The notes below the pieces were generated by a model. That model saw only the letters and a list, made by a program, of their open reading frames with translations, made no database searches and had not been told where the DNA came from. DNA of 64,000 nt from an uncultured Acidobacteriota bacterium (GTDB taxonomy: Bacteria; Acidobacteriota; Vicinamibacteria; Vicinamibacterales; CAVVIG01), in assembly GCA_963794305.1 (NCBI GenBank), contig CAWCDQ010000045.1, positions 64,138 to 128,137 on the forward strand, in the 5' to 3' direction. Made by a program: the position numbers and the translations under genes. This document shows positions 16,998 to 39,304 of this stretch, piece by piece. Each line of letters begins with the position of its first letter. Position 1 is the first letter of the stretch.

Positions 16998-18254
16998 TTA
17001 CGCGTACATCCCGCGCATCCGCGTGACGGTGGCGACGCGGCTGATCGCGACGATGTAGGCGGCTGTCCGCATGTCGACCTTGTACTTCAGCGAGGTCTCC
17101 AGCACGGCATGGAACGCCTCGCACATCTTGGCTTCGAGCCGTTCGTTGACTTCCTTCTCGGTCCAGAAGTACCCGTACCGATCCTGCACCCACTCGAAGT
17201 AGGACGTCGTGACACCGGAGCTGTTGGCGAGAATATCGGGCACGACGAACACGCCGTGGTCGTGCAGGTACTTGTGCGCGTCGGGCGTCGTCGGGCCGTT
17301 GGCGCCTTCGATGATGATCTTCGCCTTGATGGACGGCGCGTTGTCGATCGTGATCTGATTCTCGAGCGCGGCAGGAATCAGGATGTCCACGTCGAGCGAG
17401 AAGAGGTCGGCGTTGGTCAGCGGTTCGCCGCCGGAGTACCCGTCGACCGTCTTGTGCTGCTTGACATAGTCGAGCAGCGCAGGGATGTCGAGGCCTTTGG
17501 CGTTGTAGAGGCCGCCCTTCCAGTCGGTGACGGCGACGATGGTCGCGCCGACTTGCGAGGCGAGCAGCTCGGCTGAAATCGAGCCGACGTTGCCGAAGCC
17601 CTGGACTGCGACTTTCGCGCCCTTGATGTTGAGGCCGACGTGGTTGGCCGATTCGCGCGCCGCGATCATGACGCCGCGTCCCGTCGCTTCGCGCCGGCCG
17701 AGCGAACCGCCCATCTCGATCGGTTTGCCGGTGACCACGGCCGTCGAGGTGTGGCCAACGTGCATGGAGTAGGTGTCCATCACCCACGCCATGATCTGCG
17801 CATCGGTGTTGACGTCGGGCGCAGGAACGTCTTTCTCGGGACCGATCGCGTCGACGATCTCCGCGATGTAGCGGCGCGTCAGCGCCTCGACTTCGCGCCT
17901 CGACATCTTCGTGGGATCGCAGATCACGCCGCCCTTGCCGCCGCCGAACGGGATGTGCGCGACGGCGCATTTCCAGGTCATCCACGCCGCCAGCGCCGTG
18001 ACTTCGTCGAGCGTCACTCCCGGGTGGAACCGGATGCCGCCCTTGGCCGGACCGAGCGTGATGTTGTACTGGACCCGATAGCCGGTGAAGACTTCGATCT
18101 CGCCGTTGTCCATCTGGATCGGACAGGAGACCGTGATTTGACGTTTCGGGTTGGTGAGGATCTTCCAGATGCCCGGCTCGAGATTGAGGATGCGGGCGGC
18201 TCCGTCGAACTCCTGGAGCATCGCGTTGAAAATCGAACCGTTCGTAGCCGCCAT
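16998..18254 (-). CDS. gdhA: Glutamate dehydrogenase (Glu/Leu/Phe/Val dehydrogenase family)
   Basis: 418-aa ORF with [17 protein letters not shown] and GFGNVG (Rossmann) motifs. Confidence 0.92.
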
Positions 18255-21776: not shown

Positions 21777-21880
21777 TTGGCGAATTGGTGAGTTAGTGAA
21801 TTGGTGAATTGGAGGGTCGGTGACTTGAACTCGCCAGCTCACTGATTCGCCAACTCTCCAATTCGCCAAGTCACCAATTT
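21777..21880. repeat. Word-repeat hairpin, GAATTGGT / CACCAATT family
   Basis: ttggcgaattggtgagttagtgaattggtgaattgg ... ctcactgattcgccaactctccaattcgccaagtcaccaattt. Confidence 0.75.
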
Positions 21881-21897
21881 CTGTATACGATCTCGGG

Positions 21898-24558
21898 ATG
21901 CCCGAGTCGTCGACGCCGTTGACGCGCGTGGATCCCGCGCGTCTGCACCTTCCGGAGAAACCTGCCCTCGAAGGGCTCGAGTCGAAATGGATGCCCCGGT
22001 GGGAGGCATCCGGGGTCTATCGGTTCTCGCGCGTCGCGAATCGGTCCGACGTCTATTCCATCGACACGCCACCGCCGACGGTCAGCGGTTCGCTGCACGT
22101 CGGCCACGTCTTCTCCTACACCCACACCGATCTCGTGGCGCGCTTCCAGCGGATGCGCGGCAAGGCCGTCTTCTATCCGATGGGATGGGACGACAACGGG
22201 CTGCCGACCGAGCGCCGCGTCCAGAACTACTACGGTGTGCGCTGCGATCCCTCGTTGCCGTACGTCGCCAACTTCGAGCCGCCGGCACAACCGCCGAAGC
22301 CGCCGATCTCGGTATCGCGACCGAACTTCATCGAGCTCTGCGATCGCCTGACGAAAGAAGACGAGCGGGCGTTCGAGCAGTTGTGGAAGACGCTCGGCCT
22401 GTCGGTCGACTGGTCGATGACGTACGCCACGATTGGCAAGCGTGCTCAGCGCGTTTCGCAGCTCATGTTCCTCCACCACCTGGCGCGCGGGCTCGCTTAC
22501 CAGGTCGAGGCGCCCACGCTGTGGGACATCGACTTCAAGACCGCGGTGGCGCAGGCCGAGCTGGAAGATCGCGACATGCCGGCCGCCTACCATCGCGTCC
22601 GATTCAAGCTCGACGCCGATCGGTTCGTTGAGATCGACACGACCCGTCCCGAGCTGATTCCGGCGTGCGTCGCGCTGGTCGCGCATCCAGACGATGCGAG
22701 ATACCAGCCGCTGTTCGGGAAGGAAGTCGAGACGCCGCTCTTCGGCGTGAAGGTGCCGGTGCGGGCGCACCCGCTGGCCGATCCCGAAAAGGGCAGCGGC
22801 ATCGCGATGATCTGCACGTTCGGCGACGTGACCGACGTGACGTGGTGGCGGGAGCTGAGCCTGCCGGTGCGCGCCGTGATTCAGCAGGACGGGACGCTGC
22901 GCGACGTGACCTGGGGCGCGCCGGGATGGGAGTCGGCCGATGCCGGGCGCGCGCAGCGCCACTACGCCGATCTGAAAGGGCTGACCGCCGCGAAGGCGCG
23001 CGCCAAAATCGTCGAACAGCTGCACGCCAGCGGCGACCTGGTGGGTGAGCCGCGGCCGATCACCCACGCCGTGAAGTTCTACGAGAAGGGCGATCGCCCC
23101 CTCGAAATCGTCACCAGCAGGCAGTGGTTCATCAAGACGATCGAGCTCCGCGAGGCCCTGATCGCCCGCGGCAAAGAGCTCCAGTGGCACCCGGAATACA
23201 TGGAGACGCGTTTCGAGAACTGGGCGAACGGCCTCAACGGGGATTGGTGCATCAGCCGCCAGCGGTACTTCGGTGTGCCGTTCCCCGTGTGGTACCCGCT
23301 CGACGGCCAGGGGCGGGTGCAGTACGACAAGGCGATGCCGGCGCGCGAAGACCAGCTGCCCGTGGATCCGTCCACGGACGTTCCGGCAGGCTATCGTGAA
23401 GATCAGCGCGGCGTGCCGGGCGGGTTCATCGGCGATCCGGACGTGATGGACACGTGGGCGACCTCGTCGGTCTCGCCGCAAATCGTCTGCGGCTGGCCGG
23501 ACGACAAGGAACTGTTCGCGATCACGTTTCCGATGGATCTGCGCCCGCAGGCGCACGACATCATCCGCACGTGGCTGTTCGACTCGGTGCTGCGCGCGCA
23601 CCTGGAACACGACTCGCTGCCCTGGATGCACGCGGCGATTTCGGGGTGGGTGCTCGACCCCGACCGCAAGAAGATGTCGAAGTCGAAGGGCAACGTCATC
23701 ACGCCGATGGCGCTGCTGGAAGAGTTCGGCTCGGACGGCGCGCGCTACTGGGCCGCGAGCGGCCGGCCCGGAACCGACACCGCATTCGATCCCGGCCAGA
23801 TGAAGGTCGGCCGGCGTCTCGCGATCAAGATCCTCAACGCCTCGAAGTTCGCCCTCATGAACACGGCTGCGCCGGCAGATGGCGCGCAGTCGCCGCGGGC
23901 GACTGCGATCACGGCTGCCGTCGATCGCGCGATGCTCCGCGACCTTGCCGCGCTGGTGGACGAGGTCACCAAAGCGTTCGACGCGTACGACTACGCGCGC
24001 GTGCTCCAGCGCACCGAGGCGTTCTTCTGGGGCTTTTGCGACGATTACCTCGAGCTGGTCAAGGGACGCCGGTACGGTGAGCAGGGCGTGGAAAGCGCGG
24101 GCTCGGCCAACGCGGCGCTCACCGCCGCGCTGTCGGTGATGCTGCGCCTGTTCGCCCCGTTCCTTCCCTATGTCACAGAGGAGGTCTGGTCGTGGTGGCG
24201 GGAGGGCTCGATTCACACGAGTCCATGGCCGACGGCGGGAGAGCTGACGTCGCTGCTCGACGACAACGCACCGGAAACGGCCGCGGCCGACCGGGCGACC
24301 TACCAGTGGGCAACCGACGTGCTGTTCGAGGTTCGCAAACAGCGCTCCGAAGCCAAGCAGCCGCTGAAGGTGCCGATCACCAGGGTCACCGTGACAGCCG
24401 AGGCTGCCGCGATCGCGTTGATGCCTGTTGTCGACGCCGACCTGCGCGCGGCACTGCGCGTGCTGGCGTTCGAGACCGCCGCCGGCGAGCCGCGCCAGAT
24501 TGTCGTGACCGGCTACGAGCAGCCCGCGCTGAAATCGGAGTCCCAGTCTGAAATCTGA
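21898..24558 (+). CDS. valS: Valine--tRNA ligase
   Basis: 886-aa intact ORF with PPPTVSGSLHVGH (HIGH) and KMSKSKGN (KMSKS) motifs. The last codons (LKSESQSEI*) lie in a CTGAAAT word run. Confidence 0.97.
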   Translation: MPESSTPLTRVDPARLHLPEKPALEGLESKWMPRWEASGVYRFSRVANRSDVYSIDTPPPTVSGSLHVGHVFSYTHTDLVARFQRMRGKAVFYPMGWDDNGLPTERRVQNYYGVRCDPSLPYVANFEPPAQPPKPPISVSRPNFIELCDRLTKEDERAFEQLWKTLGLSVDWSMTYATIGKRAQRVSQLMFLHHLARGLAYQVEAPTLWDIDFKTAVAQAELEDRDMPAAYHRVRFKLDADRFVEIDTTRPELIPACVALVAHPDDARYQPLFGKEVETPLFGVKVPVRAHPLADPEKGSGIAMICTFGDVTDVTWWRELSLPVRAVIQQDGTLRDVTWGAPGWESADAGRAQRHYADLKGLTAAKARAKIVEQLHASGDLVGEPRPITHAVKFYEKGDRPLEIVTSRQWFIKTIELREALIARGKELQWHPEYMETRFENWANGLNGDWCISRQRYFGVPFPVWYPLDGQGRVQYDKAMPAREDQLPVDPSTDVPAGYREDQRGVPGGFIGDPDVMDTWATSSVSPQIVCGWPDDKELFAITFPMDLRPQAHDIIRTWLFDSVLRAHLEHDSLPWMHAAISGWVLDPDRKKMSKSKGNVITPMALLEEFGSDGARYWAASGRPGTDTAFDPGQMKVGRRLAIKILNASKFALMNTAAPADGAQSPRATAITAAVDRAMLRDLAALVDEVTKAFDAYDYARVLQRTEAFFWGFCDDYLELVKGRRYGEQGVESAGSANAALTAALSVMLRLFAPFLPYVTEEVWSWWREGSIHTSPWPTAGELTSLLDDNAPETAAADRATYQWATDVLFEVRKQRSEAKQPLKVPITRVTVTAEAAAIALMPVVDADLRAALRVLAFETAAGEPRQIVVTGYEQPALKSESQSEI

Positions 24559-27043: not shown

Positions 27044-27750
27044 ACGAGTACTGCCGCGAGATTGAAACCTACCTCTGTCGGAAGAACGACGGCCATCTGA
27101 TTCGCGTCGTGGGCCCATCCTTCGAGGTGGTCTCCGGCTGGGCGGAACAGCGGTGTGCCGCTCAAGGTCGCCTTCTCGGGCATCGACCGCTACTTCGAGC
27201 GCTACTACCGCAAGGGCGCGCGGCGCCGGCCCGTCAAAATCGATTTCTGCGACGCCGACGTGCTCGACGTCTTCGACGAATGGAAGCGCGCCACCGGCGT
27301 GGTGATGGCCTCCGCCTCCTCGCGGACTCTGCGGCAATCCACAATCCGCAATCCACAATCCGCAATCCCTCTCTGCCGGCGCATCTCGAGCGCGTGGTAC
27401 TGCGGTTAACGTCGGCGCGTGCCAGCGGGACGCTCGGCGACGAGTTCGATGCGTTGATCGATCGCGCTTCGGCGGAGCTGGACGCGGCTCGCGCGAAGGC
27501 GGGAGGCCTTCGAGGGACGGCGCGGCAGACGCTGTTGGATCGACTTGCGGCGCTCGACGCGGAGGTCGTACGCCAGGCGCGGTCGAGCCTCGACGAGTCC
27601 ACACGCGCATCGCTCGTGCGGGAGGCCGAATCCGAACTGGCCGGGTACCGCGCAGGCATGACCGCGGAGGCGTTCGCGCGCGCGTTGGACGCCGCGGTCG
27701 ATCGTCTCGTCCGCGAACGGGCCAGGCTGCCCACGATCGCGTTCGTCTGA
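27025..27750 (+). CDS. Conserved-looking hypothetical protein (two frame changes, heptamer repeat in linker)
   Basis: Frame 1 runs from GTG 27025 (MGTQPVDEYCREIETYLCRKNDGHLIRVVGPSFEVVSGWAEQ). An extra base at about 27151 moves to frame 2 (GVPLKVAFSGIDRYFERYYRKG...FDEWKRATGV, ORF 27155..27409). It returns to frame 1 somewhere in 27300-27375 (LPAHLERVVLRL...coiled-coil...TIAFV*). Confidence 0.55.
   Translation: MGTQPVDEYCREIETYLCRKNDGHLIRVVGPSFEVVSGWAEQRCAAQGRLLGHRPLLRALLPQGRAAPARQNRFLRRRRARRLRRMEARHRRGDGLRLLADSAAIHNPQSTIRNPSLPAHLERVVLRLTSARASGTLGDEFDALIDRASAELDAARAKAGGLRGTARQTLLDRLAALDAEVVRQARSSLDESTRASLVREAESELAGYRAGMTAEAFARALDAAVDRLVRERARLPTIAFV
27335..27369. repeat. Perfectly phased heptanucleotide tandem repeat (CAATCCN)x5 inside a coding region
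   Basis: caatcca caatccg caatcca caatccg caatccc. Confidence 0.9.
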
Positions 27751-27753
27751 GCC

Positions 27754-29031
27754 ATGAAGACCGGCGACGTCATCCCGCTCGCGATTGAGAAGCCGGCTGT
27801 CGGCGGAGCCATGATTGGGCGTCACGACGGGCGCGTGGTGCTCGTGTCCGGCGCGATTCCGGGCGAGCGCGTACAGGCGCGCATCGGCCGCGTGGCCAAG
27901 GGCATGGCGCTTGCGGATGCCGTGACGATTGACGAGCCGTCGCCGGATCGCCGCTCGTCGTCCGAGGATCCGCTGTGCGGCGGTTGCCTCTACCGGCACA
28001 TCGCGTACGCGCGCCAGCTCGAGATCAAGAGTCAGGTCATCGCCGATGCCTTCACGCGCATCGGCCATCTCGAACTGCCTGCGCCGGTCGTCGTTGCCGG
28101 ATCGCCCGAGGAGGGCTACCGCATGCGCGCGAGGCTGCACGTGCGCGGAGGGCGGGCCGGATTCTTCCGGGAAGGGACGCACGACCTCTGCGATGCGCGA
28201 CAGACGCGGCAGCTGCTGCCGGCCTCGCTCGAGGCGCTCGATCGGTTGATGGCGGCCGTCCGCTCGATCGGCGCGCACACAGTGCGCGAGATCGAACTGT
28301 CCGAGAATGTCGACGCCAGCGAGCGCGTCGTCCACCTCGAGACATCCGAGCCGGTCGATCCGCGTCTCGTCGCCAAGCTCGTTGCGGTCGACGGCTTGAC
28401 GCCCGGTCCGTACGTCACCGACACCCTGACGATCGACCAGTCATTGCTCAAGCTGCGGCGCCACGTGCTGGCGTTCTTTCAAGGCAACCGCTACCTGCTG
28501 CGCGACCTGGTGACGCACGTGACCGACCGCGTGCCGATTGGCGCGCCGCTGCTGGATCTGTATGCCGGCGTGGGACTCTTTTCGGTCGCAGCGGCCGTCC
28601 GCCGGGGAGCGATGACCGTCGCAGTTGAGGGGGACAAGGCCGCGTTCGATGATCTGTCCGCGAACGCGTCGGCGGCCGGAGCGAAGCTGACGGCGATTCG
28701 CTCGCCTATCGAGAACATTGGCGCCAGCCTGACGAAGTCCAGGCCCGCGTGGCCGACGCTGAGGCAGGCGGCACTGGCGGCGGGCGCACCGCCGCTCGAA
28801 GTCGTCATCGTCGATCCGCCGCGGACCGGGATGTCGCCCGAGGCGCTCGGCGGCGTCGTTGCGATGAAGCCGCCGCGACTCATCTACGTATCGTGCGATG
28901 TAGCGACGCTCGCGCGCGATGCCCGGAAGATCGTCGACGCCGGCTATGCGATCGAGCGTGCCGACGCCTTCGACATGTTTCCGAACACGCCGCACGTGGA
29001 GACGGTGGTGGTGTTCAACAGGACGGCCTGA
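27754..29031 (+). CDS. TRAM-domain SAM-dependent RNA (uracil-5-)methyltransferase, RlmD/TrmA family
   Basis: 425-aa ORF with a CGGCLYRH Cys cluster, IVDPPRTGMS, and the YVSCDVATLARD catalytic-Cys motif. Confidence 0.85.
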   Translation: MKTGDVIPLAIEKPAVGGAMIGRHDGRVVLVSGAIPGERVQARIGRVAKGMALADAVTIDEPSPDRRSSSEDPLCGGCLYRHIAYARQLEIKSQVIADAFTRIGHLELPAPVVVAGSPEEGYRMRARLHVRGGRAGFFREGTHDLCDARQTRQLLPASLEALDRLMAAVRSIGAHTVREIELSENVDASERVVHLETSEPVDPRLVAKLVAVDGLTPGPYVTDTLTIDQSLLKLRRHVLAFFQGNRYLLRDLVTHVTDRVPIGAPLLDLYAGVGLFSVAAAVRRGAMTVAVEGDKAAFDDLSANASAAGAKLTAIRSPIENIGASLTKSRPAWPTLRQAALAAGAPPLEVVIVDPPRTGMSPEALGGVVAMKPPRLIYVSCDVATLARDARKIVDAGYAIERADAFDMFPNTPHVETVVVFNRTA

Positions 29032-29064: not shown

Positions 29065-29087
29065 GCCCCGCGGGTTTGCCGCGGGGC
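29065..29087. terminator. GC-rich hairpin between the convergent methyltransferase and micro-peptide genes
   Basis: g-ccccgcgg-gtttg-ccgcgggg-c: 9-bp stem, 5-nt loop, no U-tract on either strand. Confidence 0.35.
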
Positions 29088-29164: not shown

Positions 29165-29317
29165 TTACCCGAGCGGGTTGCGTTTCAGTCCGCCGACAAC
29201 GTTCCGGAGTTCCGAACCGGTCGGCTCCTTCGGCTTGAGCGTTTTTAGAGAGGCTTTCCGGGTGGCGTCGGCGGGACTCGCGGACGACGGTCTCTTGTTC
29301 TTGGTGGACTTCTTCAT
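29165..29317 (-). CDS. Unlisted 50-codon ORF: candidate double-glycine-leader precursor peptide with 7-residue cargo
   Basis: My own translation of the reverse complement gives MKKSTKNKRPSSASPADATRKASLKTLKPKEPTGSELRNVVGGLKRNPLG*. GGAGGG (plus-strand ccctcc 29323-29328) lies 5 nt upstream of the ATG at 29317. The ORF sits 110 nt downstream of the SelO-like gene on the same strand, next to a C39 exporter. It is too short for the 60-aa ORF track. Confidence 0.55.
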   Translation of the reverse strand: MKKSTKNKRPSSASPADATRKASLKTLKPKEPTGSELRNVVGGLKRNPLG

Positions 29318-29427
29318 GACAACCCTCCATGCTGCGACGACCTGCTCAGCGGTGTCGCAAGCTGATACGAAATGCGAATCAGCGCGCGAATGCTAGCACA
29401 TCATCGGCTGCTCCTTCCAACGAGAAC

Positions 29428-31089
29428 TCAGCGCCTGCCGCACACCTCCACCCCTCGCCGAGTCATTCCGTCGAGCGCGGCCGATCCGACCGGGTTGTGA
29501 GCCAGAATCCCGTCGATAAATGCCTGCACCCGACGAGGATATTGTTGCCCCCGATCCGAATACTGACGAACCAGTGAGGAGATCCGCGAAACAAGCCGCG
29601 CACGTCGGTACGCGTGCAATGGGACATGACCGTGTTCTGCGCGCGAGCACATTGCGTCGCACACGGTCCGCCATTTCTCCGAATCGCTGGCGGTGACGAG
29701 CCGCGCTGCGGCCATGACTTCTCCGTAAGCGCGCGTCAGCCGATCCAGATGCCTGTGCGCGAGTTCGCGAGTACGCCGCCGCCGAGCCATCGTCCCGGAC
29801 ACCTGAATGCGCGCCAGTGTGCGAACCACTTCGGTATGATCCGCCTCCGGGCGCCGGAGGTAGCGTCGCGGCAACAACGAGAGCAGCCGAAACACATCCA
29901 CCACGCTGATGCCCCGGCCGGTCGCGGTCCTCGCGTCCAGCGTTCCCGGATTTCTGAGCGCTATCAGACGACTCAGCACCTGCACGAAGCGCCCGACGAC
30001 CGGAGGGTGATGGCATCGCACGCGGAGGGCGAGGGTCTCGTCGAACCCGGCGGCCTTCAGAAACTGAATCGAGAGCTCTTCCTCGTAGCACCTGTGAAAT
30101 TCGGCGACGCAATCAAGGCCGTCGGCGCCGAGAGCGCTCCGTCGTTCAGGCGTCAGCGACTCCGTCACGCACAGAAACATCGCGTGCAGGTGCGGCACTC
30201 TGGAGAGGTGTTCCCGCCCGAAGACCGCGTCACGGCGTCGTTGACGCGCGGCGTGCATCGGCGCAGTGCGGTCCTGTGTCGTCATCAGCCACACATCGAG
30301 CATCTCGCCAAACAGCCCCATGTTCGATGTGGAGAGCGCTCCGTGCAGCACGCGCCATCGGACTTGCTCGGCGGCCGTGCGAGCCTGCAGGCGAAGGATG
30401 CGCCGCATCGTATCGGCCAGCTGCGGTCGGCCGTCTCTTGTGACCAGGACGCCACCGTATCGGGCGAGCTTCACGAAGAGCGTCGGCAGATCGCTGAGGT
30501 CTTCGCCGAGCTGCCGAACCAAATGCGCTGGACGATAGGGTGCACCACAGCGGGCAATCACCGCCGCGCGCGCAAGACCGCCATCGACCTCCACGGTGCG
30601 TCCTTGATCGAGAATCGCCACGACCCGTGCGGCACCAGCCGAGAAGATACGCGTCGCGAGCTCGCCGTAGACGGCCTCGGCGATCGCGTGAACAAGTTGG
30701 AGCCCGCCGTCCCGATGACGCGGGCCGCCCACGCCCGCCAGCGGCGTCCGCCCGATCCCTTTGAGGAACACGTTCTTCGAGAGCAAGATGCCGCCTCGAG
30801 CCGAGCCCGCGTGGTCGCCCATGGCGGAACCGTAGTACCGATCGCAATGGAGTGTGACGACAGCACGGCGGCCCGCCGCCTGGCCAGCCTCGATCGCCCG
30901 GCACGAGAATGCGTCGACGAGCTGCCGCTCGAGGCGTCGGCTGAGGCGATTCTCGCGTGGTACTGAAAAGCCCATTTGCCGGGCGACCTCGAAGTTGCAC
31001 CACAGTACCCGCGCTGGAACGACGGCCGCCGGGAACGGCGACAGCGTGCGTGCTCCGAGAGCGCCGAATCGAAGAGAAGGCGCGCGCAT
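29428..31089 (-). CDS. Divergent SelO/YdiU-like kinase-fold protein (putative nucleotidyltransferase) with long Arg-rich helical C-terminal extension
   Basis: 553-aa intact ORF. By-eye matches to SelO family motifs: RYYGSAMGDHAGSARGGILL, FLKGIGRTP (Lys of LKGxGxTP), DGGLQLVHAIAEAVYGE, and RVLHGALSTSNMGLFGEMLDVW (compare HGVLNTDNMS..G.T.DYG). Confidence 0.65.
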   Translation of the reverse strand: MRAPSLRFGALGARTLSPFPAAVVPARVLWCNFEVARQMGFSVPRENRLSRRLERQLVDAFSCRAIEAGQAAGRRAVVTLHCDRYYGSAMGDHAGSARGGILLSKNVFLKGIGRTPLAGVGGPRHRDGGLQLVHAIAEAVYGELATRIFSAGAARVVAILDQGRTVEVDGGLARAAVIARCGAPYRPAHLVRQLGEDLSDLPTLFVKLARYGGVLVTRDGRPQLADTMRRILRLQARTAAEQVRWRVLHGALSTSNMGLFGEMLDVWLMTTQDRTAPMHAARQRRRDAVFGREHLSRVPHLHAMFLCVTESLTPERRSALGADGLDCVAEFHRCYEEELSIQFLKAAGFDETLALRVRCHHPPVVGRFVQVLSRLIALRNPGTLDARTATGRGISVVDVFRLLSLLPRRYLRRPEADHTEVVRTLARIQVSGTMARRRRTRELAHRHLDRLTRAYGEVMAAARLVTASDSEKWRTVCDAMCSRAEHGHVPLHAYRRARLVSRISSLVRQYSDRGQQYPRRVQAFIDGILAHNPVGSAALDGMTRRGVEVCGRR

Positions 31090-31110
31090 ACGCCGCGTAG
31101 AATACCGTGT

Positions 31111-32181
31111 GTGCCGTCATGCTTGGCGAACCCTCGATGGAAGCAGGGAGTGTTTTCTGTCGGCGGTCGCGATTACGAGTGGCTGGACATTTTTCTCGCG
31201 GCAATGCTGCGCGGTGAGTGGCGCGCGTTCGAGACGCGACTGGTTGAAGCCCTTGCCTGCCTGGCTGAAGCAAGCGAGGAGCAGTATTGGCCCGACGCGG
31301 ACCGCATCGACGCCGCAGCGAGCGCCTTCCGGTACGATCGCGACCTCCTGACGAGCGACGCGACCATTGCCTGGATCGAGCAGGAGGGTCTGACCCTCGA
31401 CGACTGGACCAACTTCCTGGTGGGACGCCTCCTCGTCGAGGAGTGGAGCGATCGACTCGCGCTGGTCGATCGGCATGCGCCGTCGCCGACTGTCACAGAT
31501 AGCGCCTTCGCCGCCGAGGGCATCTGCTCCGGAGCCTTCGATGCATGGGCCAGCACCCTCGCCGGACGGGCCGCCGTCGCGGCGACGGCGGCGAACGTCG
31601 AACTGGAGCACGCGCCCATCGACGATGCGCGCCTCGAGCGGGCTCGAAGGGATCATTCGGCCTGGCTCGAGCCGATCGAGCCAGCCATCCTTGCCGATCG
31701 GCTGATGTTCCTGGACCGGCTGCACTCGACGTTTGACGCACAGGCGCGAGCCAGGACCACGCCTGAGGCGCTTACCGCGCAACTCACGCGCAATCGCCTC
31801 GAATGGATGCGGGTGGACCTGGAACGCCTCTCGTTCGCCACTGTCGATGCGGCGCGCGAAGCGGCGTGGTGTGTGCTCGAAGACGGGCTCACCCTTGATG
31901 ACATTGCCGTCGATTTAGGGCTTGCCGTCCACGACTCGTGCGAGCTGATCGAGCGGCTCGACCCCGAGGTGCGCGAGGCTGTCCTTGGCGCCAACGTCGA
32001 TCAGCTCATCGGACCGGTGAAGGTTGGCGACCGCTACGAGGTGATCTGGGTTGTCGGCAAGGCTGTACCAGACCTCGCCGATCCGTTGGTCTCCGCCCGC
32101 GCGGCGACCGCCGCGATCGAACAACTGGTCGCGATGGCCACACGCTCGCACGTCCGCTGGGTGGGTCTGCCCCGGTTCTGA
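31111..32181 (+). CDS. Hypothetical protein with C-terminal parvulin (PpiC)-like segment
   Basis: In ORF 30976..32181, whose 5' end overlaps the divergent gene. In-frame starts are GTG 31111, TTG 31123 and GTG 31150, so the start is unresolved. The C-terminus SFATVDAAREAAWCVLEDGLTLDDIAVDLG...LGANVDQLIGPVKVGDRYEVIWVVGKAVP resembles a rotamase domain. Confidence 0.55.
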   Translation: MPSCLANPRWKQGVFSVGGRDYEWLDIFLAAMLRGEWRAFETRLVEALACLAEASEEQYWPDADRIDAAASAFRYDRDLLTSDATIAWIEQEGLTLDDWTNFLVGRLLVEEWSDRLALVDRHAPSPTVTDSAFAAEGICSGAFDAWASTLAGRAAVAATAANVELEHAPIDDARLERARRDHSAWLEPIEPAILADRLMFLDRLHSTFDAQARARTTPEALTAQLTRNRLEWMRVDLERLSFATVDAAREAAWCVLEDGLTLDDIAVDLGLAVHDSCELIERLDPEVREAVLGANVDQLIGPVKVGDRYEVIWVVGKAVPDLADPLVSARAATAAIEQLVAMATRSHVRWVGLPRF

Positions 32182-32229
32182 GTTATCCTCAGCTGGGTTC
32201 GGTCCCGGAGCGGAGGACTTGGCTGTGGG

Positions 32230-35200
32230 GTGGCGCGAGTGAGCGACCATGGCGTTCTCGACGAGTTGCCGATCCTCAGATTCCTGCCGGAGGGCGTTCG
32301 GGCGAACGTGATCCGGCGGTTCGTGCCGGCTTCGTTTCCGTTCGGCTCGGTGATCGTCGCTGAAGGCTCGCCCTCCGACGCGTTCTACGTCCTCGTATCT
32401 GGCAAAGCGCGCGTGGTCAAACGCGGCTCGACCGGAGACGAAATCCCCCTGAACGTGCTGCGCGCGGGCGACAGTGTCGGTGAAGCCGAGCTCCTGGATG
32501 GTGCGGTGCGCCCGTCAACAGTGCGGGCGAGCACACACGTTCTGGCGCTGCGGCTCGATGCCGACGAATTCCGGACCCTCGTCGATGCTCACCCCGACAT
32601 CCGGACCTACCTCGAACTGCAGCTCAAACACGCCCGCCTGCAAGCCTTCTTTCGCAACATGCCGGCGTTTGCGCGGCTGCCGGCTGAAGCGGTCGCTGGA
32701 GTGGTCCTTGCCGAACTGGAACCAGTGGTCCTCGACGCTGGCGAACTCGTCTACCGTCACGGCGACTCCGCCGGACCGCTGTATCTGATTGAACAAGGCC
32801 GCGTGCGTGTCCTGCAGAGCGCCAACGGTCGTTCGAACTATGTGGCGACGCTGGGAGCGGGCGAATCGTTTGGCATCGTGTCAGCGGTGCGCCGATCGCC
32901 CCGGACCACCACCGTCGAGACCATGACATCGGTACGGCTCCTGACCCTCAGCGGCGAGACGCTGGAGCGTCTCGCCGCGGCCTTGCCACAATTCCGCACA
33001 ATGCTGGACGACTGGATCGCTCAGCACGATTTCCGCAACATCGCCAACGTTCCGGCCGACATCGATCAGGAGCTGCTGCCCGCAGGTGCTGCGGCGCAAC
33101 AGTCCGTCAGCGAAGCCCAGGTCGATCAAACGGAAGACGAGGTCGACGAGGCCGATCTCGATGCGCCATTTGCTGAAGGCGGCCACTTCGTCAAGGCTCA
33201 CCGCCGTCGACGCGTGCCCTTCATCCAGCAAATCGACGAGGTGGATTGTGGCGCAGCATGCCTGGCGATGGTCACTCGCGCGTTTGGTCGGCGCGTCAGC
33301 CTCGCCCGCATTCGTCAGCTCGTGAACACCGGTCTGGACGGCACCAGTCTTCGATCGATCTGCCGAGCGGGCGAAGAACTGGGCCTGGCGACTCGCGCGG
33401 TCAAGTCGGCGACCGGCCATCTCGACCAGATGCCTCTGCCCGCCATCGTCCACTGGGACAAGTACCACTGGATCGTCGTGGTTACCGTCGATCGGAAGCA
33501 CGTCAAGGTGATCGATCCCGCTCTGGGGCGGCGGACGCTGGCGCGGGCGGAGTTCGAGAGCAGATGGAGTGGCTACGCAGCGCTGTTCGACTACACGCCC
33601 GACTTCGAGCAGGCACCGCAAGCGACTCGCCGGCTGGCGTGGACGTGGTCGCTCGTCAGGCCGCACGCGGGGCTTCTGGCGCAAGGCCTGGGGCTGGCCG
33701 TTGTCGTGAGCGCGCTGCAGATGGTGCTGCCCGTGTTCACGCAGGTGATCGTCGACCGCGTTCTCGTCGATCAGGATCTCTCGCTGCTCTATCTCCTCAT
33801 CGTCGCCATGGCCACGACGATGGTGTTCATCGTTATGTCGCTGTTGTTGCAGCGGTACCTGGTGAGCTTCTCCGCGGTCCGTATCGACGCGGCCGCCCTC
33901 GACTACATCACCCGGCGCCTGCTCGCGCTGCCGATGTCGTACTTCGCGTCGCGGCGCACCGGCGATTTGCAGCGCCGCCTCGAAGGCGTTCGACACGTAC
34001 GAGACGTCCTCGCCCAGCATGGCATCGCCGGCATCACTGCTGTCGCGCAGCTCGGCGCGACCGTCATGCTGATGGCGTTCTACAGCCGATGGCTGACCGT
34101 GGTGTTTCTCGCAACCGCGCCGCTCTACGCCCTGTTGATGCTCATGGCCGCCAAGCTGCTGCGGCCGATCTTCCTGGATCTCGAGGATTCATTCAGCAAG
34201 TACCACTCGTATCAAATCGACGCGATCAAGGGGATTGAAACAGTCAAGGCTCTGGGCGGCGAATCGGCGTTCCGCCGGCTGCTGCTCGGCCAGTTTCTGG
34301 GGGTGTCGGACAAGATCTTCAAGGCGGACTTCACGGCGATGACCTACGAGGGGGCCATCGATGCGGTGACCTTTCTTGCCGTCGGCCTCTTCCTCTGGGC
34401 GGGGGCATACCAGGTCTTGAATGGCAGGCTGTCGATTGGCGGCCTGGTGGCATTCAACTCGCTCGTGGCGCTGGCCAACACGCCCATTCGCAATCTGCTG
34501 GTGCTCTGGGACAACCTCCAACGCTGCGACGTGCTGCTCAATCGGGTCGACGACGTGTTGCAGCAGGAACCCGAGCAGGGTCACGACCGCTCGGCACTGC
34601 GGCCGGTCTCGAGCCTCGCCGGGCACGTGACGTTGAGCAACGTCGGCTTCCGTTACGGCGGTCCTGAGGCACCCGCCATCCTCGAACACGTGACCCTCGA
34701 TGTGCCCGCCGGCAAAGTGGTCGCCATCGTCGGCCGCAGCGGATCGGGGAAGACGACGGTGGCCAAGTGCATGGCCGGTCTGCTCGAGCCGACTGAGGGC
34801 ACGATTCTCTACGATGGGCTCGACCTCAGGACGTTGAACTACCGAGATCTGCGGCGCCAGATCGGGTTTGTGCTGCAGGATTCGTATGTGTTTGCCGATA
34901 CCATCGCGCGCAACATCGCGTTCGGCGAAGACGAGCCGGACATGGACCGTGTCGCGTGGGCGGCGGAAGTGGCCGGCGCGAGCGAGTTCATCACGCGGCT
35001 GCCGTTTGGTTATGACACTCGCATCGGCGAAACCGGCCTGGCGCTGTCAGGCGGTCAACGCCAGCGGATTGCCATCGCCCGTGCCGTCTACAACAGGCCG
35101 CCGATCCTGATTTTCGACGAGGCGACCAGCTCGCTCGACGCCGAATCGGAGCGGGCGGTGCAGCAGAACATCGATTCGCTGCTCGAAGGCCGAACGGCGT

Positions 35201-35358
35201 TTGTCATCGCCCATCGAATGAGCACGGTTCAGAACGCCGACGTCATCATCGTCATCGAGCGCGGCCGGTTGGTCGAACAGGGCACTCACGACGATCTGAT
35301 CGCGCGGCGCGGCCTCTACTACTATCTGGTCAGCCAGCAGCTTGGAGCAGGTGGGTAG
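32230..35358 (+). CDS. Peptidase-C39 ABC exporter (PCAT) with two N-terminal cyclic-nucleotide-binding domains
   Basis: 1042-aa intact ORF. Two CAP-type cNMP domains (GDSVGEAELLDGAVRPSTVRA; GESFGIVSAVRRSPRTTTVET). C39 domain with IDEVDCGAACLAMV (Cys) and HWIVVV (His). Six-helix TMD. Walker A GRSGSGKTT, signature LSGGQRQRIAIARA, Walker B ILIFDEATSSLD. Confidence 0.92.
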   Translation: MARVSDHGVLDELPILRFLPEGVRANVIRRFVPASFPFGSVIVAEGSPSDAFYVLVSGKARVVKRGSTGDEIPLNVLRAGDSVGEAELLDGAVRPSTVRASTHVLALRLDADEFRTLVDAHPDIRTYLELQLKHARLQAFFRNMPAFARLPAEAVAGVVLAELEPVVLDAGELVYRHGDSAGPLYLIEQGRVRVLQSANGRSNYVATLGAGESFGIVSAVRRSPRTTTVETMTSVRLLTLSGETLERLAAALPQFRTMLDDWIAQHDFRNIANVPADIDQELLPAGAAAQQSVSEAQVDQTEDEVDEADLDAPFAEGGHFVKAHRRRRVPFIQQIDEVDCGAACLAMVTRAFGRRVSLARIRQLVNTGLDGTSLRSICRAGEELGLATRAVKSATGHLDQMPLPAIVHWDKYHWIVVVTVDRKHVKVIDPALGRRTLARAEFESRWSGYAALFDYTPDFEQAPQATRRLAWTWSLVRPHAGLLAQGLGLAVVVSALQMVLPVFTQVIVDRVLVDQDLSLLYLLIVAMATTMVFIVMSLLLQRYLVSFSAVRIDAAALDYITRRLLALPMSYFASRRTGDLQRRLEGVRHVRDVLAQHGIAGITAVAQLGATVMLMAFYSRWLTVVFLATAPLYALLMLMAAKLLRPIFLDLEDSFSKYHSYQIDAIKGIETVKALGGESAFRRLLLGQFLGVSDKIFKADFTAMTYEGAIDAVTFLAVGLFLWAGAYQVLNGRLSIGGLVAFNSLVALANTPIRNLLVLWDNLQRCDVLLNRVDDVLQQEPEQGHDRSALRPVSSLAGHVTLSNVGFRYGGPEAPAILEHVTLDVPAGKVVAIVGRSGSGKTTVAKCMAGLLEPTEGTILYDGLDLRTLNYRDLRRQIGFVLQDSYVFADTIARNIAFGEDEPDMDRVAWAAEVAGASEFITRLPFGYDTRIGETGLALSGGQRQRIAIARAVYNRPPILIFDEATSSLDAESERAVQQNIDSLLEGRTAFVIAHRMSTVQNADVIIVIERGRLVEQGTHDDLIARRGLYYYLVSQQLGAGG

Positions 35359-35359
35359 G

Positions 35360-36580
35360 ATGCCAAGTTCCACTGACGTGCTATTTCTGGATTCGACGCC
35401 GCCGCCGTGGGCGGCCCGCGCGTTGGCCTGGGTCCTGCTGGCGCTTTTCGGTGTGGCCGCGCTCGCGCTGATCCTCGTTCAAGTGCCCGAGACGGTCGCC
35501 GCACCCTTCGTCCTGGTTTCTGAGCACGGGTCCGATCCGGTGCGCACGCTGCACGACGGCATCGTGACGGGTGTTTCCGTCGCTGATGCCCAGACGGTCG
35601 AACCTGGCACCGTCCTCTACACCATCAGCTCCGAAGCGGTCGGCGATCGCACGGCGGAAAGGACGGCGCTTGGAAACAGCCTGTCGGGCGGGCAGATGCA
35701 TCTCGCCAACGAGCGGAGCAAGTACGACAACCAGCGTCAGGCCGATGAGCAGGAAGTCGGCCGGCTGCAGCAGCGCCTGACCGCGATCGCGTCGCAAGTG
35801 CTGCTCAAAGAACGCCAAGTGCAGAACGCGCGGGAGATCGCCGCACGCCAGCAGCGCAGTTTCGAGGAGGGCCTCACCAGCTGGATCGAAGCATCGAAAC
35901 CGAGAATGGATACCGATCGCCTCTCCGTGGAGCTCGAAGCGGCCCGGGCGGAATCAGTGGAGACGCAGGCGGCGCTCTCGCGGCAGCGTTTCGAGATGGC
36001 CTCCCGAAAGGCGGCCTTCGACGAACTGAATCGCAGCGTCAGAGAGGAGCTCGATCGCACCCGCGTGCGCAAAGGCATGCTGGATGCCGAGTCCTCTCGG
36101 CAGGGGAGTGTCCTGACTATCCGCGCACCGTGCTCGGGGACCATCCTGAAGCTGGTGGTCCGAAACCCCGGCACCGTGGTGCACGGCTCCGAGGTGCTCG
36201 CCGAGATCACGTGCCGCGACAATCGGCTGCAGGCCGAGCTGATGGTGCCGCAGCGTGGGCTGGCGATTTTGCGAGCCGGGCAACCGGTCAAGCTGCAGTA
36301 CGACGCCTTCCCGTATCAACGCTTTGGCGTGCGCTACGCGACGCTTCGTTGGATCAGCCCAGCTTCGTCTACGCCGGAGACCGGTGGATCGTTTCGAGCG
36401 CTGGCAGACTTGGACGACCAGATTCTCCACATCGGCGGCCAGCCCCGCGCCGTCCTGCCGGGCATGGGCGGTCAGGCGTCCATCGTGGTCGGACGGCGAT
36501 CCTTGGCGAGCTACGCACTGGAGCCGCTGCGCCAAATGCGCGAGGTGATGTCATCGGGTCGATCCGCCGGCGGAATCTAG
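35360..36580 (+). CDS. HlyD-family membrane-fusion (periplasmic adaptor) protein
   Basis: In ORF 35342..36580, with the ATG at 35360 just after the exporter stop. N-terminal TM, long coiled coil (QRQADEQEVGRLQQRL...), C-terminal beta-barrel (GQPVKLQYDAFPYQRFG...LPGMGGQASIVVGRRSL). Confidence 0.85.
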   Translation: MPSSTDVLFLDSTPPPWAARALAWVLLALFGVAALALILVQVPETVAAPFVLVSEHGSDPVRTLHDGIVTGVSVADAQTVEPGTVLYTISSEAVGDRTAERTALGNSLSGGQMHLANERSKYDNQRQADEQEVGRLQQRLTAIASQVLLKERQVQNAREIAARQQRSFEEGLTSWIEASKPRMDTDRLSVELEAARAESVETQAALSRQRFEMASRKAAFDELNRSVREELDRTRVRKGMLDAESSRQGSVLTIRAPCSGTILKLVVRNPGTVVHGSEVLAEITCRDNRLQAELMVPQRGLAILRAGQPVKLQYDAFPYQRFGVRYATLRWISPASSTPETGGSFRALADLDDQILHIGGQPRAVLPGMGGQASIVVGRRSLASYALEPLRQMREVMSSGRSAGGI

Positions 36581-36595
36581 TGTTGGTCGAAATCC

Positions 36596-37285
36596 TCAGC
36601 TCTTCTGCGCCGTTTCGAGAAATCCCTCGAACAGCGCCCGGAATTCTCCCGTTCGGAAAAAATTCTCGGGATGCCATTGAACCCCGAGACAGAAGAGCGC
36701 CTTCGGATCCTCGATGGCCTCGATGACGCCGTCCGGCGCCGTCGCCGATATGACGAAGCCGCGCGCGACAGCCTTCACCGCCTGATGGTGACGGCTGTTC
36801 ACCTCGAGCGCCTCGTCAACAAGGCGATCGCGCATCAGTTTTGCGAGCAGCGAGTCCTTGTCGACCCAGACCTCGTGCGCCAACTCGTACGGCTGGTGCT
36901 GCGGCACCGGCAGGCTGTGCGCGAGCGCGCCCGCGATCTGCGACGGGATGTCCTGCACGAGCGTCCCGCCGCACGCGACATTGAGCACTTGAACGCCGCG
37001 GCAGATGGCGAGGATCGGCAGATTGCGCGCGCGCGCCGCGAGGATCAGCGCAATCTCGAATTCATCCCGTCCGGGCTCCGCCTCCTCGACCGTCTCGTGA
37101 GCGGCCTCGCCGTACCTCGACGGCGCGACGTCTCCGCCGCCCGTCAGCATGAGGCCGTCGATGCCGGTCAGCGCCTGCTCGATCGGCATCGACGAGTCGA
37201 GGGTGCGCGGTTCGCCGCCGACGTGAAGAATTGACTGCCGGTAGTCCTCGAGCTTCCGGCAGGCCGCGATGCCAATGACTGTCAT
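36596..37285 (-). CDS. Class I glutamine amidotransferase / peptidase C26 (gamma-glutamyl-GABA-hydrolase-like)
   Basis: MTVIGIA... at 37285 within ORF 36596..37375. Motifs PILAICRGVQVLN (Cys) and GVQWHPE (His). Confidence 0.85.
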   Translation of the reverse strand: MTVIGIAACRKLEDYRQSILHVGGEPRTLDSSMPIEQALTGIDGLMLTGGGDVAPSRYGEAAHETVEEAEPGRDEFEIALILAARARNLPILAICRGVQVLNVACGGTLVQDIPSQIAGALAHSLPVPQHQPYELAHEVWVDKDSLLAKLMRDRLVDEALEVNSRHHQAVKAVARGFVISATAPDGVIEAIEDPKALFCLGVQWHPENFFRTGEFRALFEGFLETAQKS

Positions 37286-37287
37286 GG

Positions 37288-39304
37288 TCACATTCGATTC
37301 GGGATGTCTATGCCCATCAGATCGAGCGCCCGCGTGAGCTGCGCGCGCACGTATGCCACACCGGCGGCGCGCCACCGCTTCCGATCCGCGTCTTCTTCGC
37401 CCAGGATCGGATACCGATGGTAGAACGCGTTGAACGTCTGCGCCAGCCCGAACGTGTACTTGGCCAGGCCCGAGAACTCCAGCGATCGGACGACCGACTC
37501 GACTACCTCATCCAGGCGCGATGCCTCGAAGACCACGGCCCACAGGTCGTGGGTCGGGTCGTCGGACCCTTCGGCGAGCTCGCTGGCTGACGCCGGGTCG
37601 AGCCCTGCAAGCACGTCCGCCTCCGAGACGCCTTCGCGTTCCTGCAGCTTGTGCAGGATATTGCGCGCGCGGACGACGGCGTACTGCAGGTACGGGCCGG
37701 TCTCACCTTCGAAACTCAGCGCCTCTTCGATGTCGAACACGATCAGCTTGCCGCGGGAGAACTTCAGCATGAAGTACCGGATCGCCGCGACGGCGATCTG
37801 CGCGCCGGCGCGCTGGCACTCCTCCGGAGGTGAACTCAGGGTTGCGCTGCGCGACCTCGGCCGCCGCCTTGTTCGTCAACAGGTCGAGCAGATCGTCAAT
37901 CTTGACGCCGAGCCCCTTCCGTCCGGAGACCTCGACGAACGGCTTCCGCGCGTCTTCCGCCGCTGTTTCGTAGCCCAGTTCGCGCGCCGTCGCGTGCGAC
38001 AGCGCGACCATCTCGTAGGAGAAATGAATCGAGTTCTCGGCTTCCGTCGGATGTCCCAGCGTCCGCAGCGCCTGGCTGAGCAGCGCCTGCAGATACATCT
38101 GCCGCGAGTCGATGACGTTGAAGATCCGTCGTGCGTTTCCGAACGATGGCGCTCCCGGATCGGTGTCTGCCGAGGTCGTGGCCCACAACGAACGCTCATG
38201 CGCCTGCATCGCGAATCGCCGATAGCGGAAATCGAGACCAAGGAGCCCGAACTTCCAGAACTGGTTGGCGAGATCCTTGCCAACGTAGGTGACGACGCCG
38301 TTCGAGCGGACGATGACTTTCTCTCGCTGCTCGGGATCCTCGCCCTCGTCGGACTGGTCCGCGGCTGGTTGTCCGTCCGCGCTCTTCGCGGTTCCGTCGT
38401 CGATTCGCATGACCCAGCAGCCGGCGAGCTTGCCTTCCGTTTGCAGGAACACCGCTCCCTGGGCTTTCAGCGTTTCGAAGGCGTGCGTCCAGAAGTGCAG
38501 GCGCAGGATGTCGCCCTCGTAGGTCAGCAGGTCGTAACCGATGTTGAGGCGCGCCATCGTCTTCAGGTGCGCGCGGACGATGCGATCGACGATGAACGTG
38601 CCCATCGCGGCGGTGTCGTTGCCGCCGTGCTCGAGGTCGTGCAGAACGGCGGCGCGGATGGCCAGGCGCTGCTTGTCGCCGTCGTACCATTCGGTGACCC
38701 TGGAGTACAGATCCCAGCAGTAGTAGTCGAAGCGCGTGGTGTCCGCGATCGTTCGCACGGCGTCGAGCGTCAGCTGTTCGATCTCCCGGAACCCGACGAT
38801 GACGTCGGCCACCTGAACGCCCGTGTCGTCGATGTAGTTCTGGGTCTCGACCGGCGTGCCGCGGAAACTCAAGGCCCGCACCAGCGTGTCGCCGAGCGCC
38901 GCATTGCGGAGGTGGCCGATGTGCGCGGCCTTGTTCGGGTTGATCGCCGTGTGCTCGACGATGGTTTTCTCCCGCGCTTCCAGCGCCGGTGTCACCTGTT
39001 GACGAACGCGGGCGGTGAAGAACGGAGCGCGCTCGATGTACAGATTCAGGTAGCCGTTCGGCGTCGCGACAACGCGGGCGATGCCTGGAATGTCGCCAAG
39101 CGCCTGGCTGAGTTCCTGCGCGATGTTTCGCGGCGCCTTACGAAGGACGCGGGCGAGCTGGAAAGCGACGGGCACGGCGAGATCGCCAAGGGTTCGCGTC
39201 GGCGGGACTTCGATGGCGAACGCCGGCACATCGGCGACGCCGAAGTGTTTCCGGATCGCCTCGCTGATGGCGTCGTGAACGTGTCGTTGAAGGCTGAGAA
39301 TCAT
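37288..39304 (-). CDS. argS: Arginine--tRNA ligase (apparent frameshift)
   Basis: ORF 37703..39304 (N-terminal part, INPNKAAHIGHLRNA) and ORF 37288..37770 (C-terminal anticodon-binding part). They join at about 37828 (NPEFT|PEECQRAGAQIAVAAIRYFMLKFSR); one extra base. Confidence 0.9.

Follow-up and report, generated by a model that had tools for sequence, protein, structure and literature searches.

A double-glycine-leader peptide gene linked to a divergent SelO/YdiU-fold enzyme and a C39 exporter in an uncultured Acidobacteriota bacterium

The window studied here is a stretch of 64,000 nucleotides from an uncultured bacterium of the Acidobacteriota (contig CAWCDQ010000045.1). On its minus strand, at 29165-29317, lies a short open reading frame (ORF) of 50 codons and a stop codon, the product of which, MKKSTKNKRPSSASPADATRKASLKTLKPKEPTGSELRNVVGG-LKRNPLG*, has the make-up of an exported precursor peptide, namely a long basic leader ending in a double-glycine (GG) motif and a core of seven residues. 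From comparison with its orthologues we regard it as practically certain that this ORF is a real gene. It is co-oriented with the gene of a divergent SelO/YdiU-fold enzyme, 110 nt downstream of it, and is found 2.9 kb from the gene of a peptidase-containing ABC transporter (PCAT) with a C39 domain. We propose that the precursor is modified by the SelO-like enzyme, cleaved after Gly43 by the exporter and secreted, a combined reading to which we give a probability of about 0.6.

Translation of the minus strand gave the product exactly as a preliminary description of this DNA had written it. The leader (residues 1-43) is encoded by nucleotides 29189-29317, the core LKRNPLG (residues 44-50) by nucleotides 29168-29188 and the stop codon by 29165-29167, all on the minus strand. 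A Shine-Dalgarno sequence, GGAGGG, is present at 29323-29328 of the same strand and is followed, after the 5-nt spacer reported before, by the ATG at 29317. Counting residues bore out the picture of a 43-residue leader that is basic and rich in Ser and Thr (11 Lys/Arg, 10 Ser/Thr and 3 Asp/Glu). The leader has no hydrophobic segment and is thus not a signal of the Sec type; the peptide as a whole is highly basic and predicted to be disordered. Searches of Pfam and NCBIfam at E <= 0.01 returned no match for the peptide, nor did it match any of the curated leader models (bacteriocin-type signal, NHLP, Nif11). Neither Rfam nor tRNA scans gave a match in the window, and no known RNA accounts for the peptide region.

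One alternative is that the ORF arose by chance in GC-rich intergenic DNA. Such ORFs are very common: the DNA has a GC content of about 67%, and 169 ORFs of at least 40 amino acids (aa) were counted within 20 kb, so that the size of a 50-codon ORF is not significant by itself. The lack of a Pfam or NCBIfam family match points the same way. The comparative data speak against chance. A protein search found six homologues with identities of 63-94%, most of them 50-54 aa long and one called with an upstream extension of 72 aa. A profile built from a narrow set, without the peptides derived from the loci described below, retrieved three further distant homologues from 1.84 billion cluster representatives and nothing else credible. 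Homologues thus reach down to 38% identity, and the family amounts to about 10 cluster representatives in a collection of about 15 billion proteins, found only in soil-type metagenomes. Homologous small ORFs at syntenic positions, which the preliminary description had proposed to look for, do exist. In the DNA around homologues of the enzyme the peptide gene was recovered at seven loci (L001, L007, L010, L011, L013, L014 and L015), each time beside the same enzyme, and in L013, L014 and L015 gene callers had called it independently. Counted in full, nine metagenomic loci have an orthologue directly behind this enzyme gene. Orthologues carry a purine-rich, Shine-Dalgarno-like sequence at the same place (GGAGGG, GGGGAG, GGGAGG or GGAGCG), and the length differences among homologues are whole codons, i.e. 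in-frame insertions or deletions.

The type of substitution was evaluated by comparison of the window with L015, whose enzyme is 88% identical to that of the window. Within the peptide ORF 14 of the 19 substitutions fall at third codon positions (P = 4e-4), and the proportions of non-synonymous and synonymous differences (pN/pS) in the leader are 0.031/0.392. Nucleotide identity is 88% in the ORF as compared to 66% and 74% in the flanking intergenic DNA. Third-position bias, low leader pN/pS, in-frame length changes and the conserved Shine-Dalgarno sequence, together with conservation above that of the flanks, the distant homologues and the repeated independent gene calls, make a chance ORF very improbable, and by these comparative data it appears effectively excluded. 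The peptide copy in L007 (9748-9927 of a 99.5-kb ENA contig) carries a frameshift, with A4 in place of a homopolymer of A5, and the neighbouring genes of this locus match only in fragments. An assembly (homopolymer) error is the most likely cause. We rejected this frameshift as a sign of non-coding DNA, since all neighbours in L007 are fragmented and the difference is one of homopolymer length.

Codon usage had also been put forward in favour of the gene, as being atypical for the window. This argument did not stand. The GC content at third codon positions (GC3) of the ORF is 0.765, the highest among its three frames and like that of its neighbours in the cluster (0.73-0.80), which is mild support for coding rather than a sign of atypical usage. 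Low GC content is confined to first codon positions, a consequence of the many Lys, Ser and Thr residues in the peptide. Concerning the wider surroundings, GC3 is 0.73-0.80 in the peptide, enzyme and exporter genes (29165-36580) as compared to 0.85-0.88 in the flanking housekeeping genes for GDH (16998-18254), ValRS (21898-24558) and an RlmD-like protein (27754-29031). This offset hints at horizontal acquisition of the cluster or at different codon selection.

Leaders of class II bacteriocins and of ComC-type peptides typically end in the double-glycine consensus L-S-x-x-E-L-x-x-I-x-G-G. The last 12 leader residues encoded here, P-T-G-S-E-L-R-N-V-V-G-G, fit this consensus at positions -11, -8, -7, -4, -2 and -1. 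In an alignment of 11 sequences of the peptide family, T(-11), E(-8), L(-7), V(-4), G(-2) and G(-1) are invariant in all members, in agreement with the canonical GG leader and very short core that had been described. Position -12 is Pro, Ala or Leu and thus not always hydrophobic. Over the whole length of the alignment M1, K2, S11, K25, L27, K28, T33, E36, L37, V40, G42, G43 and L44 are invariant. No other small ORF of the 64-kb window carries the full motif; a relaxed GG-leader motif occurred in one other, and both such matches lie inside long ORFs. Upstream of the GG consensus the leader contains a second conserved box, S-L-K-T-L-K-P-K. C39 domains are not known to require such a box, so that it is a candidate site for recognition by another protein. 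The Ser and Thr residues of the leader had been suggested as targets of a modifying enzyme; S11 and T33 do not vary in the 11 sequences, but T33 stands where the double-glycine consensus usually has Ser(-11). That the precursor is a GG-leader substrate of the neighbouring exporter is quite probable.

Across the family the leader has 43-46 aa and the part behind the GG motif 7-10 residues. The latter is cationic and differs by lineage (LKRNPLG, LKRNPLA, LKRGPLA, LKGRPLA, LGSSKGRPLA, LGSSKKPLA, LGSRTAEK, LASRKAEK and QGGPKRPPV), so that nine different cores are found on one leader type. In close relatives pN is 0.02-0.03 in the leader and 0.21-0.27 in the core. Between the window and L013, the enzymes of which are 98% identical, the core shows four non-synonymous and no synonymous differences (pN 0.273), compared with a pN of 0.009 in the enzyme gene. 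Between L001 and L010 (enzymes 70% and 60% identical to that of the window) the reverse was found, with no non-synonymous and four synonymous differences in the core and a diverging leader. These two regimes of selection suggest that the tail is functional and lineage-specific, a pattern expected for a released product. A conserved leader followed by a variable core is also how precursors of ribosomally synthesised peptides with post-translational modifications (RiPPs) present themselves. The core of the window contains no hydroxyl residue, as described before, and Lys is the sole nucleophilic side chain common to every core.

The peptide gene is adjacent to the enzyme gene well beyond the window. 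In every locus with enough sequence the SelO-like gene lies immediately upstream of the peptide. The pair of enzyme and peptide genes is divergent, in the window, L013, L015 and L007, from an operon encoding a SurA-like protein, the PCAT and a HlyD-family adaptor. A collinear order of all genes is found in L001 and L011, where the peptide gene stands between the enzyme gene and the SurA-like gene. The adjacency of enzyme and peptide is kept in L014 and L010 as well. The existence of two gene orders means that the peptide stays with the enzyme through rearrangement; a dedicated enzyme is co-inherited with the precursor, as in RiPP clusters. The C39 exporter adjoins the pair in six loci (window, L013, L015, L007, L001 and L011). 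Moreover, in L008 a 613-aa enzyme, 49% identical to that of the window, is followed (at about 1870-2058) by a different GG peptide, MSNEPKKKKKVKPETASDAVESKDDKELGDEDLENVSGG plus TAATVSPALRDALNKAGSVGRA, whose leader ends in DEDLENVSGG before a tail of 22 residues. The pairing of this enzyme type with a GG peptide therefore extends beyond the family of the window. No downstream peptide and no exporter nearby were found for the enzyme homologues of 700-800 aa (about 35% identity) in L002-L004, and no obvious downstream peptide for the 52% identical homologues in L005 and L006. In L014, a 76% identical relative, the pair has as its neighbours (L014 1096-5291) genes for JmjC-type and PhyH-type hydroxylases, a sulfotransferase and an MvdD-type ATP-grasp enzyme, on a contig without an exporter. 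All of these are typical peptide-tailoring enzymes.

The cassette of SurA-like protein, PCAT with cyclic-nucleotide (cNMP) type domains and HlyD adaptor also occurs without the enzyme, in a metagenome-assembled genome of the Vicinamibacterales, whose SurA-like protein is 43% identical to that of the window, and on other contigs, where a sigma-54 activator often follows it. Such enzyme-less loci were seen at 10001-16490 of L017 and in the metagenome loci of the homologues P0035 and P0032. In the latter, two small ORFs (60 and 58 aa) lie directly upstream and may be other precursor types. A lanthipeptide dehydratase (Lant_dehydr_N/C, L016 19049-21158) was found about 8 kb from another SurA-like/PCAT cassette. 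A search for GG-peptide motifs in L016 and L017 found none, with ORFs started at the first Met, so that some may be missed. In 185,579 species-representative genomes (GTDB), patterns from the SelO-like alignment or from the N-terminal half of the PCAT found no relatives. The picture from these gene contents is one of enzyme and peptide as a cargo module that would be docked on a more widespread export cassette.

The peptide could also be an intracellular partner of the enzyme (a regulator, an inhibitor or an antitoxin-like substrate) that is not exported, in which case the GG motif and the proximity of the exporter would be incidental. This would accord with the strict linkage of the two genes, which includes the exporter-less contigs L014, L010 and L008, and with a peptide that is highly basic, predicted to be disordered and devoid of a hydrophobic segment. 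The signature E-L-x-x-V-x-G-G is nevertheless invariant in all members and recurs in the L008 peptide, which is dissimilar in other respects; six loci, in two arrangements, have a C39 exporter next to the pair, and the tail behind the GG motif is replaced between lineages and under purifying selection within a lineage, as for a released product. We hold an intracellular partner to be improbable.

The enzyme gene (29428-31089, minus strand) encodes a protein of 553 aa. The preliminary description had called it SelO-like, which stands as to fold and active site; a Pfam model to confirm it was not matched. The protein had no Pfam or NCBIfam match even at E <= 10 and so did not reach the gathering score of PF02696, for which only faint precomputed matches exist, in two homologues. 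When the PDB was searched with a profile of 20 family members, the best hits were SelO/YdiU proteins, with a marginal E value (about 0.01) and an alignment spanning the K-G-x-G-x-T-P strand and the catalytic segment H-G-x-x-x-T-x-N-M...D. An AlphaFold (AF2) model (predicted confidence, pLDDT, 72) was compared with known structures by Foldseek. The nine best matches were all SelO/YdiU, with E values of 1e-10 to 5e-9 and template-modelling (TM) scores of 0.42-0.54, and the next match had an E of 0.2. In the enzyme family K110, E138, R180, R186, N256 and D265 are invariant, and these invariant residues align to YdiU K107, R170, R177, N247 and D256. In SelO and YdiU the counterparts of these residues hold the flipped nucleotide and the metal (PMC8097203). 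YdiU Asp246 is replaced by a family-invariant Ser, S255. By its model the 553-aa protein is thus SelO-like in predicted fold and nucleotide site, and by the curated test not a member of PF02696. We presume it to be a nucleotide-dependent tailoring enzyme of the peptide. The chemistry it might perform is inferred solely from the known SelO/YdiU activities, which are transfer of AMP or UMP to Ser, Thr, Tyr or His and, as recently reported, hydrolysis of NAD+ (PMC8097203, PMC13391479).

On the plus strand, divergent from the pair, the operon begins with a gene for a 343-aa protein (31150-32181), predicted to be a cytoplasmic SurA/PrsA-like protein with a parvulin domain. It matches TIGR04500 with 22 bits (cutoff 180; E 6e-5 to 9e-5) over 64 residues and so falls short of the curated cutoff; 51 of the 56 members of its family likewise match below threshold, with a best E of 3e-13. 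The AF2 model is of high confidence (pLDDT 93), its top structure matches being SurA, PrsA, PEB4 and parvulin, i.e. an architecture of chaperone plus parvulin, and the gene lies directly upstream of the PCAT in every locus. The protein is a distant relative of the TIGR04500 family. This family includes its closest characterised relative, MirC, a partner protein needed by the rosaritide ATP-grasp enzyme and not a proven isomerase (PMC13097080). Between the window and L001 (7199-8218) the SurA-like protein is 40% identical, as compared to 67-70% for the PCAT and the SelO-like enzyme; judged by these identities it is diverging much faster than its neighbours. The Asn-Pro bond of the core had been proposed as the target of a parvulin-type isomerase. 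This proposal is not supported. Pro is absent from the cores LGSRTAEK and LASRKAEK, Asn-Pro is changed to Gly-Pro or Arg-Pro even in relatives that are 88-98% identical, and the parvulin-like protein travels with the exporter in genomes without enzyme and peptide. Since it follows the exporter and not the enzyme, and since two core types lack Pro, a role of the SurA-like protein in chaperoning or presenting substrates is more likely than the isomerisation of a specific Asn-Pro bond.

The exporter itself, a PCAT of 1042 aa (32230-35358, plus strand), combines two cNMP-binding domains (PF00027) at its N-terminus with a C39 peptidase domain (PF03412, 3e-36) and the transmembrane domain and ATPase of the ABC transporter core (PF00664 and PF00005). 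Its nearest NCBIfam model is TIGR03796, below cutoff. Motifs matching the C39 catalytic residues are present (Cys340 in VDC340GAAC, His413 in YH413WIVV, and Asp429), and the presence of a C39 exporter near the peptide gene, reported earlier, was thereby upheld; by its sequence the C39 domain would be of the catalytic type. It is followed by the gene of a HlyD-family periplasmic adaptor (35342-36580, plus strand), which matches HlyD_3 and HlyD_D23 in Pfam and, below threshold, TIGR01843 and TIGR03794 in NCBIfam.

From these components the following course of events may be put together. The 50-residue GG-leader precursor would be translated in the cytoplasm, where the adjacent SelO/YdiU-fold enzyme would recognise the conserved leader, including the S-L-K-T-L-K-P-K box, and modify the peptide with a nucleotide triphosphate, the likeliest reactions being transfer of AMP, UMP or phosphate. 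The SurA-like parvulin protein would probably hold the unstructured peptide or present it to the exporter. The C39 domain of the cNMP-regulated transporter would then cut after Gly43, and transporter and HlyD adaptor would export the cationic heptapeptide LKRNPLG, or a product of 7-10 residues in related lineages. Outside the cell the product could act as a signal or as an antagonistic peptide. Modification and its type, cleavage after GG43 and the role of the product are all inferred.

Another possibility is that a pheromone or a small peptide of the microcin kind is made with a GG leader, stays unmodified, and is cleaved and secreted by the exporter. The enzyme would then have a different role, for example in immunity, in regulation or in AMPylating a cellular protein when the peptide is sensed. 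The GG consensus beside an adjacent PCAT and the lack of a conserved Ser, Thr or Tyr in the cores fit this possibility, many GG peptides are known to be exported unmodified (PMC7018657, PMC12219008), and elsewhere the SurA-like/PCAT cassette serves other cargo. It explains less well that the peptide lies directly downstream of the enzyme even where no exporter adjoins or the gene order differs, that a 49% identical enzyme (L008) has its own, different GG peptide, and that the SLKTLKPK box is located well upstream of the part needed by C39, as expected for recognition by a tailoring enzyme. We consider export of an unmodified peptide unlikely. Modification of the peptide by the SelO-like enzyme seems to us slightly more probable than its opposite.

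Several observations weigh against a modified and exported peptide. The cores have no conserved hydroxyl residue, the usual SelO/YdiU acceptor, and only Lys is found in every core. The change from YdiU Asp246 to an invariant S255 may mean that the chemistry differs or that the enzyme only binds nucleotides. No exporter is present on the available contig in L014, L010 and L008, and other genomes have the SurA-like/exporter cassette and lack the enzyme. With seven residues, the exported product would be unusually small among PCAT substrates. Confidence in the enzyme model is moderate (pLDDT 72, TM 0.42-0.54), and modification, cleavage and export are all predicted. As the core is free of hydroxyl residues, Lys occurs in every core and T33 sits at a position of the GG consensus, no single residue stands out as the acceptor. 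We put forward only tentatively, as possible and rather doubtful, the more specific idea that the enzyme nucleotidylates (with AMP or UMP) or otherwise activates the leader-bearing peptide at a non-canonical acceptor, such as the Lys present in every core or the C-terminus. The product would then be a cationic peptide-nucleotide conjugate of 7-10 residues, released through a C39 exporter gated by cyclic nucleotides or ppGpp. If true, this would be the first class of ribosomal peptide natural products tailored by a pseudokinase-type AMPylase.

Among known systems, the peptides exported by PCATs through GG leaders (class II bacteriocins, microcins and ComC-type pheromones) share with the present locus a leader ending in E-L-x-x-V-x-G-G, a neighbouring C39 ABC transporter and a HlyD adaptor. 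Here, in contrast, the leader is long and basic (43-46 aa), the mature part has 7-10 residues, the peptide gene is coupled to that of a kinase-fold enzyme, the exporter has two cNMP-binding domains at its N-terminus and no bacteriocin-leader model is matched. In the RaxX/RaxST/RaxB-RaxA system of Xanthomonas, a single tailoring enzyme attaches one charged group, taken from a nucleotide-activated donor, to a GG-leader peptide, which is then cleaved and exported by a PCAT with a HlyD-type adaptor; that enzyme is a sulfotransferase, its acceptor is Tyr, and the mature peptide is much longer than here. Microcin C7 resembles the locus in the size of its peptide. The heptapeptide MccA is encoded by a tiny gene beside that of MccB, which adenylates it; however, MccB is ThiF/E1-like, MccA is leaderless and ends in Asn, and export is by a major facilitator superfamily protein, none of which applies here. 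We rejected assignment to a microcin C-type cluster, as the locus lacks a ThiF-like gene, its peptide bears a leader, and the last residue of the cores is Gly, Ala, Lys or Val.

The same logic of gene content is found in the cluster of the graspetide rosaritide, MirA/MirB/MirC/MirD, with a precursor, one nucleotide-dependent tailoring enzyme, a SurA-like protein of the TIGR04500 type and a C39 exporter of the TIGR03796 type (PMC13097080). The tailoring enzyme there is an ATP-grasp ligase and here of the SelO/YdiU fold; the SurA-like protein here reaches 22 bits to TIGR04500 (cutoff 180), the core lacks the ring pattern of Asp/Glu plus Ser/Thr/Lys, and the host is acidobacterial-type and not an actinomycete. 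The SelO/YdiU AMPylases and UMPylases (PF02696; PDB 6eac, 6k20 and 6lna) share with our enzyme the predicted fold and the Lys, Glu, two Arg, Asn and Asp of the active site (PMC8097203). They differ in that the similarity here is below every Pfam threshold, with an invariant Ser for YdiU Asp246, and in that the known enzymes have folded cellular proteins as substrates, are unpaired with a small peptide gene and lie outside export clusters. HetC of Nostoc PCC 7120, a PCAT with an N-terminal cNMP-type domain, is thought to export a short regulatory peptide and has neither an identified GG substrate nor an adjacent adaptor, whereas here a candidate substrate is encoded beside the exporter (PMC10986499).

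Some further features of the window were noted. Between the convergent peptide and RlmD-like genes lies the GC hairpin described earlier (29065-29087, minus strand), a perfect 9-bp GC stem with a loop of 5 nt. It is present, and it may be a transcript-end or stabilising structure. A role as terminator was rejected as unsupported, since the hairpin has no U-tract, a terminator scan does not report an intrinsic terminator, and in folding the region does not surpass shuffled sequence (z = -0.55). A gene for a protein like peptidase C26/class-I glutamine amidotransferases (36596-37375, minus strand) is convergent with the HlyD gene and syntenic in L013 and L007. Short tandem repeats are found at 21777-21879 and 27334-27368, with periods of 8, 16 and 24 nt and of 7 and 14 nt, respectively.

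In the literature, searched as open-access papers and preprints, no SelO/YdiU-fold enzyme dedicated to a small peptide, or located in such a cluster, was found. The logic of leader peptide and PCAT is known; what is new is the fold of the tailoring enzyme, together with the length and basic character of the leader and the shortness of the core. The constant pairing of a conserved peptide gene with such an enzyme points to a modified or signalling peptide of soil bacteria that belongs to a rare type not described so far. Should the enzyme indeed modify the peptide, the reach of SelO-type chemistry would widen, from the regulation of proteins to the tailoring of natural products, and SelO biochemists would have at hand a compact, genetically defined pair of enzyme and substrate. 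A candidate cognate substrate is moreover available here for a PCAT with sensor domains of the cNMP type, a group whose best-studied member, HetC, is still without a known substrate (PMC10986499). The seven-residue tail is rapidly replaced between 98%-identical strains and strictly conserved in another clade. By analogy with the specificity of pherotypes and bacteriocins, this suggests that the peptide may have a social function at the level of strains in soil Acidobacteria-like bacteria.

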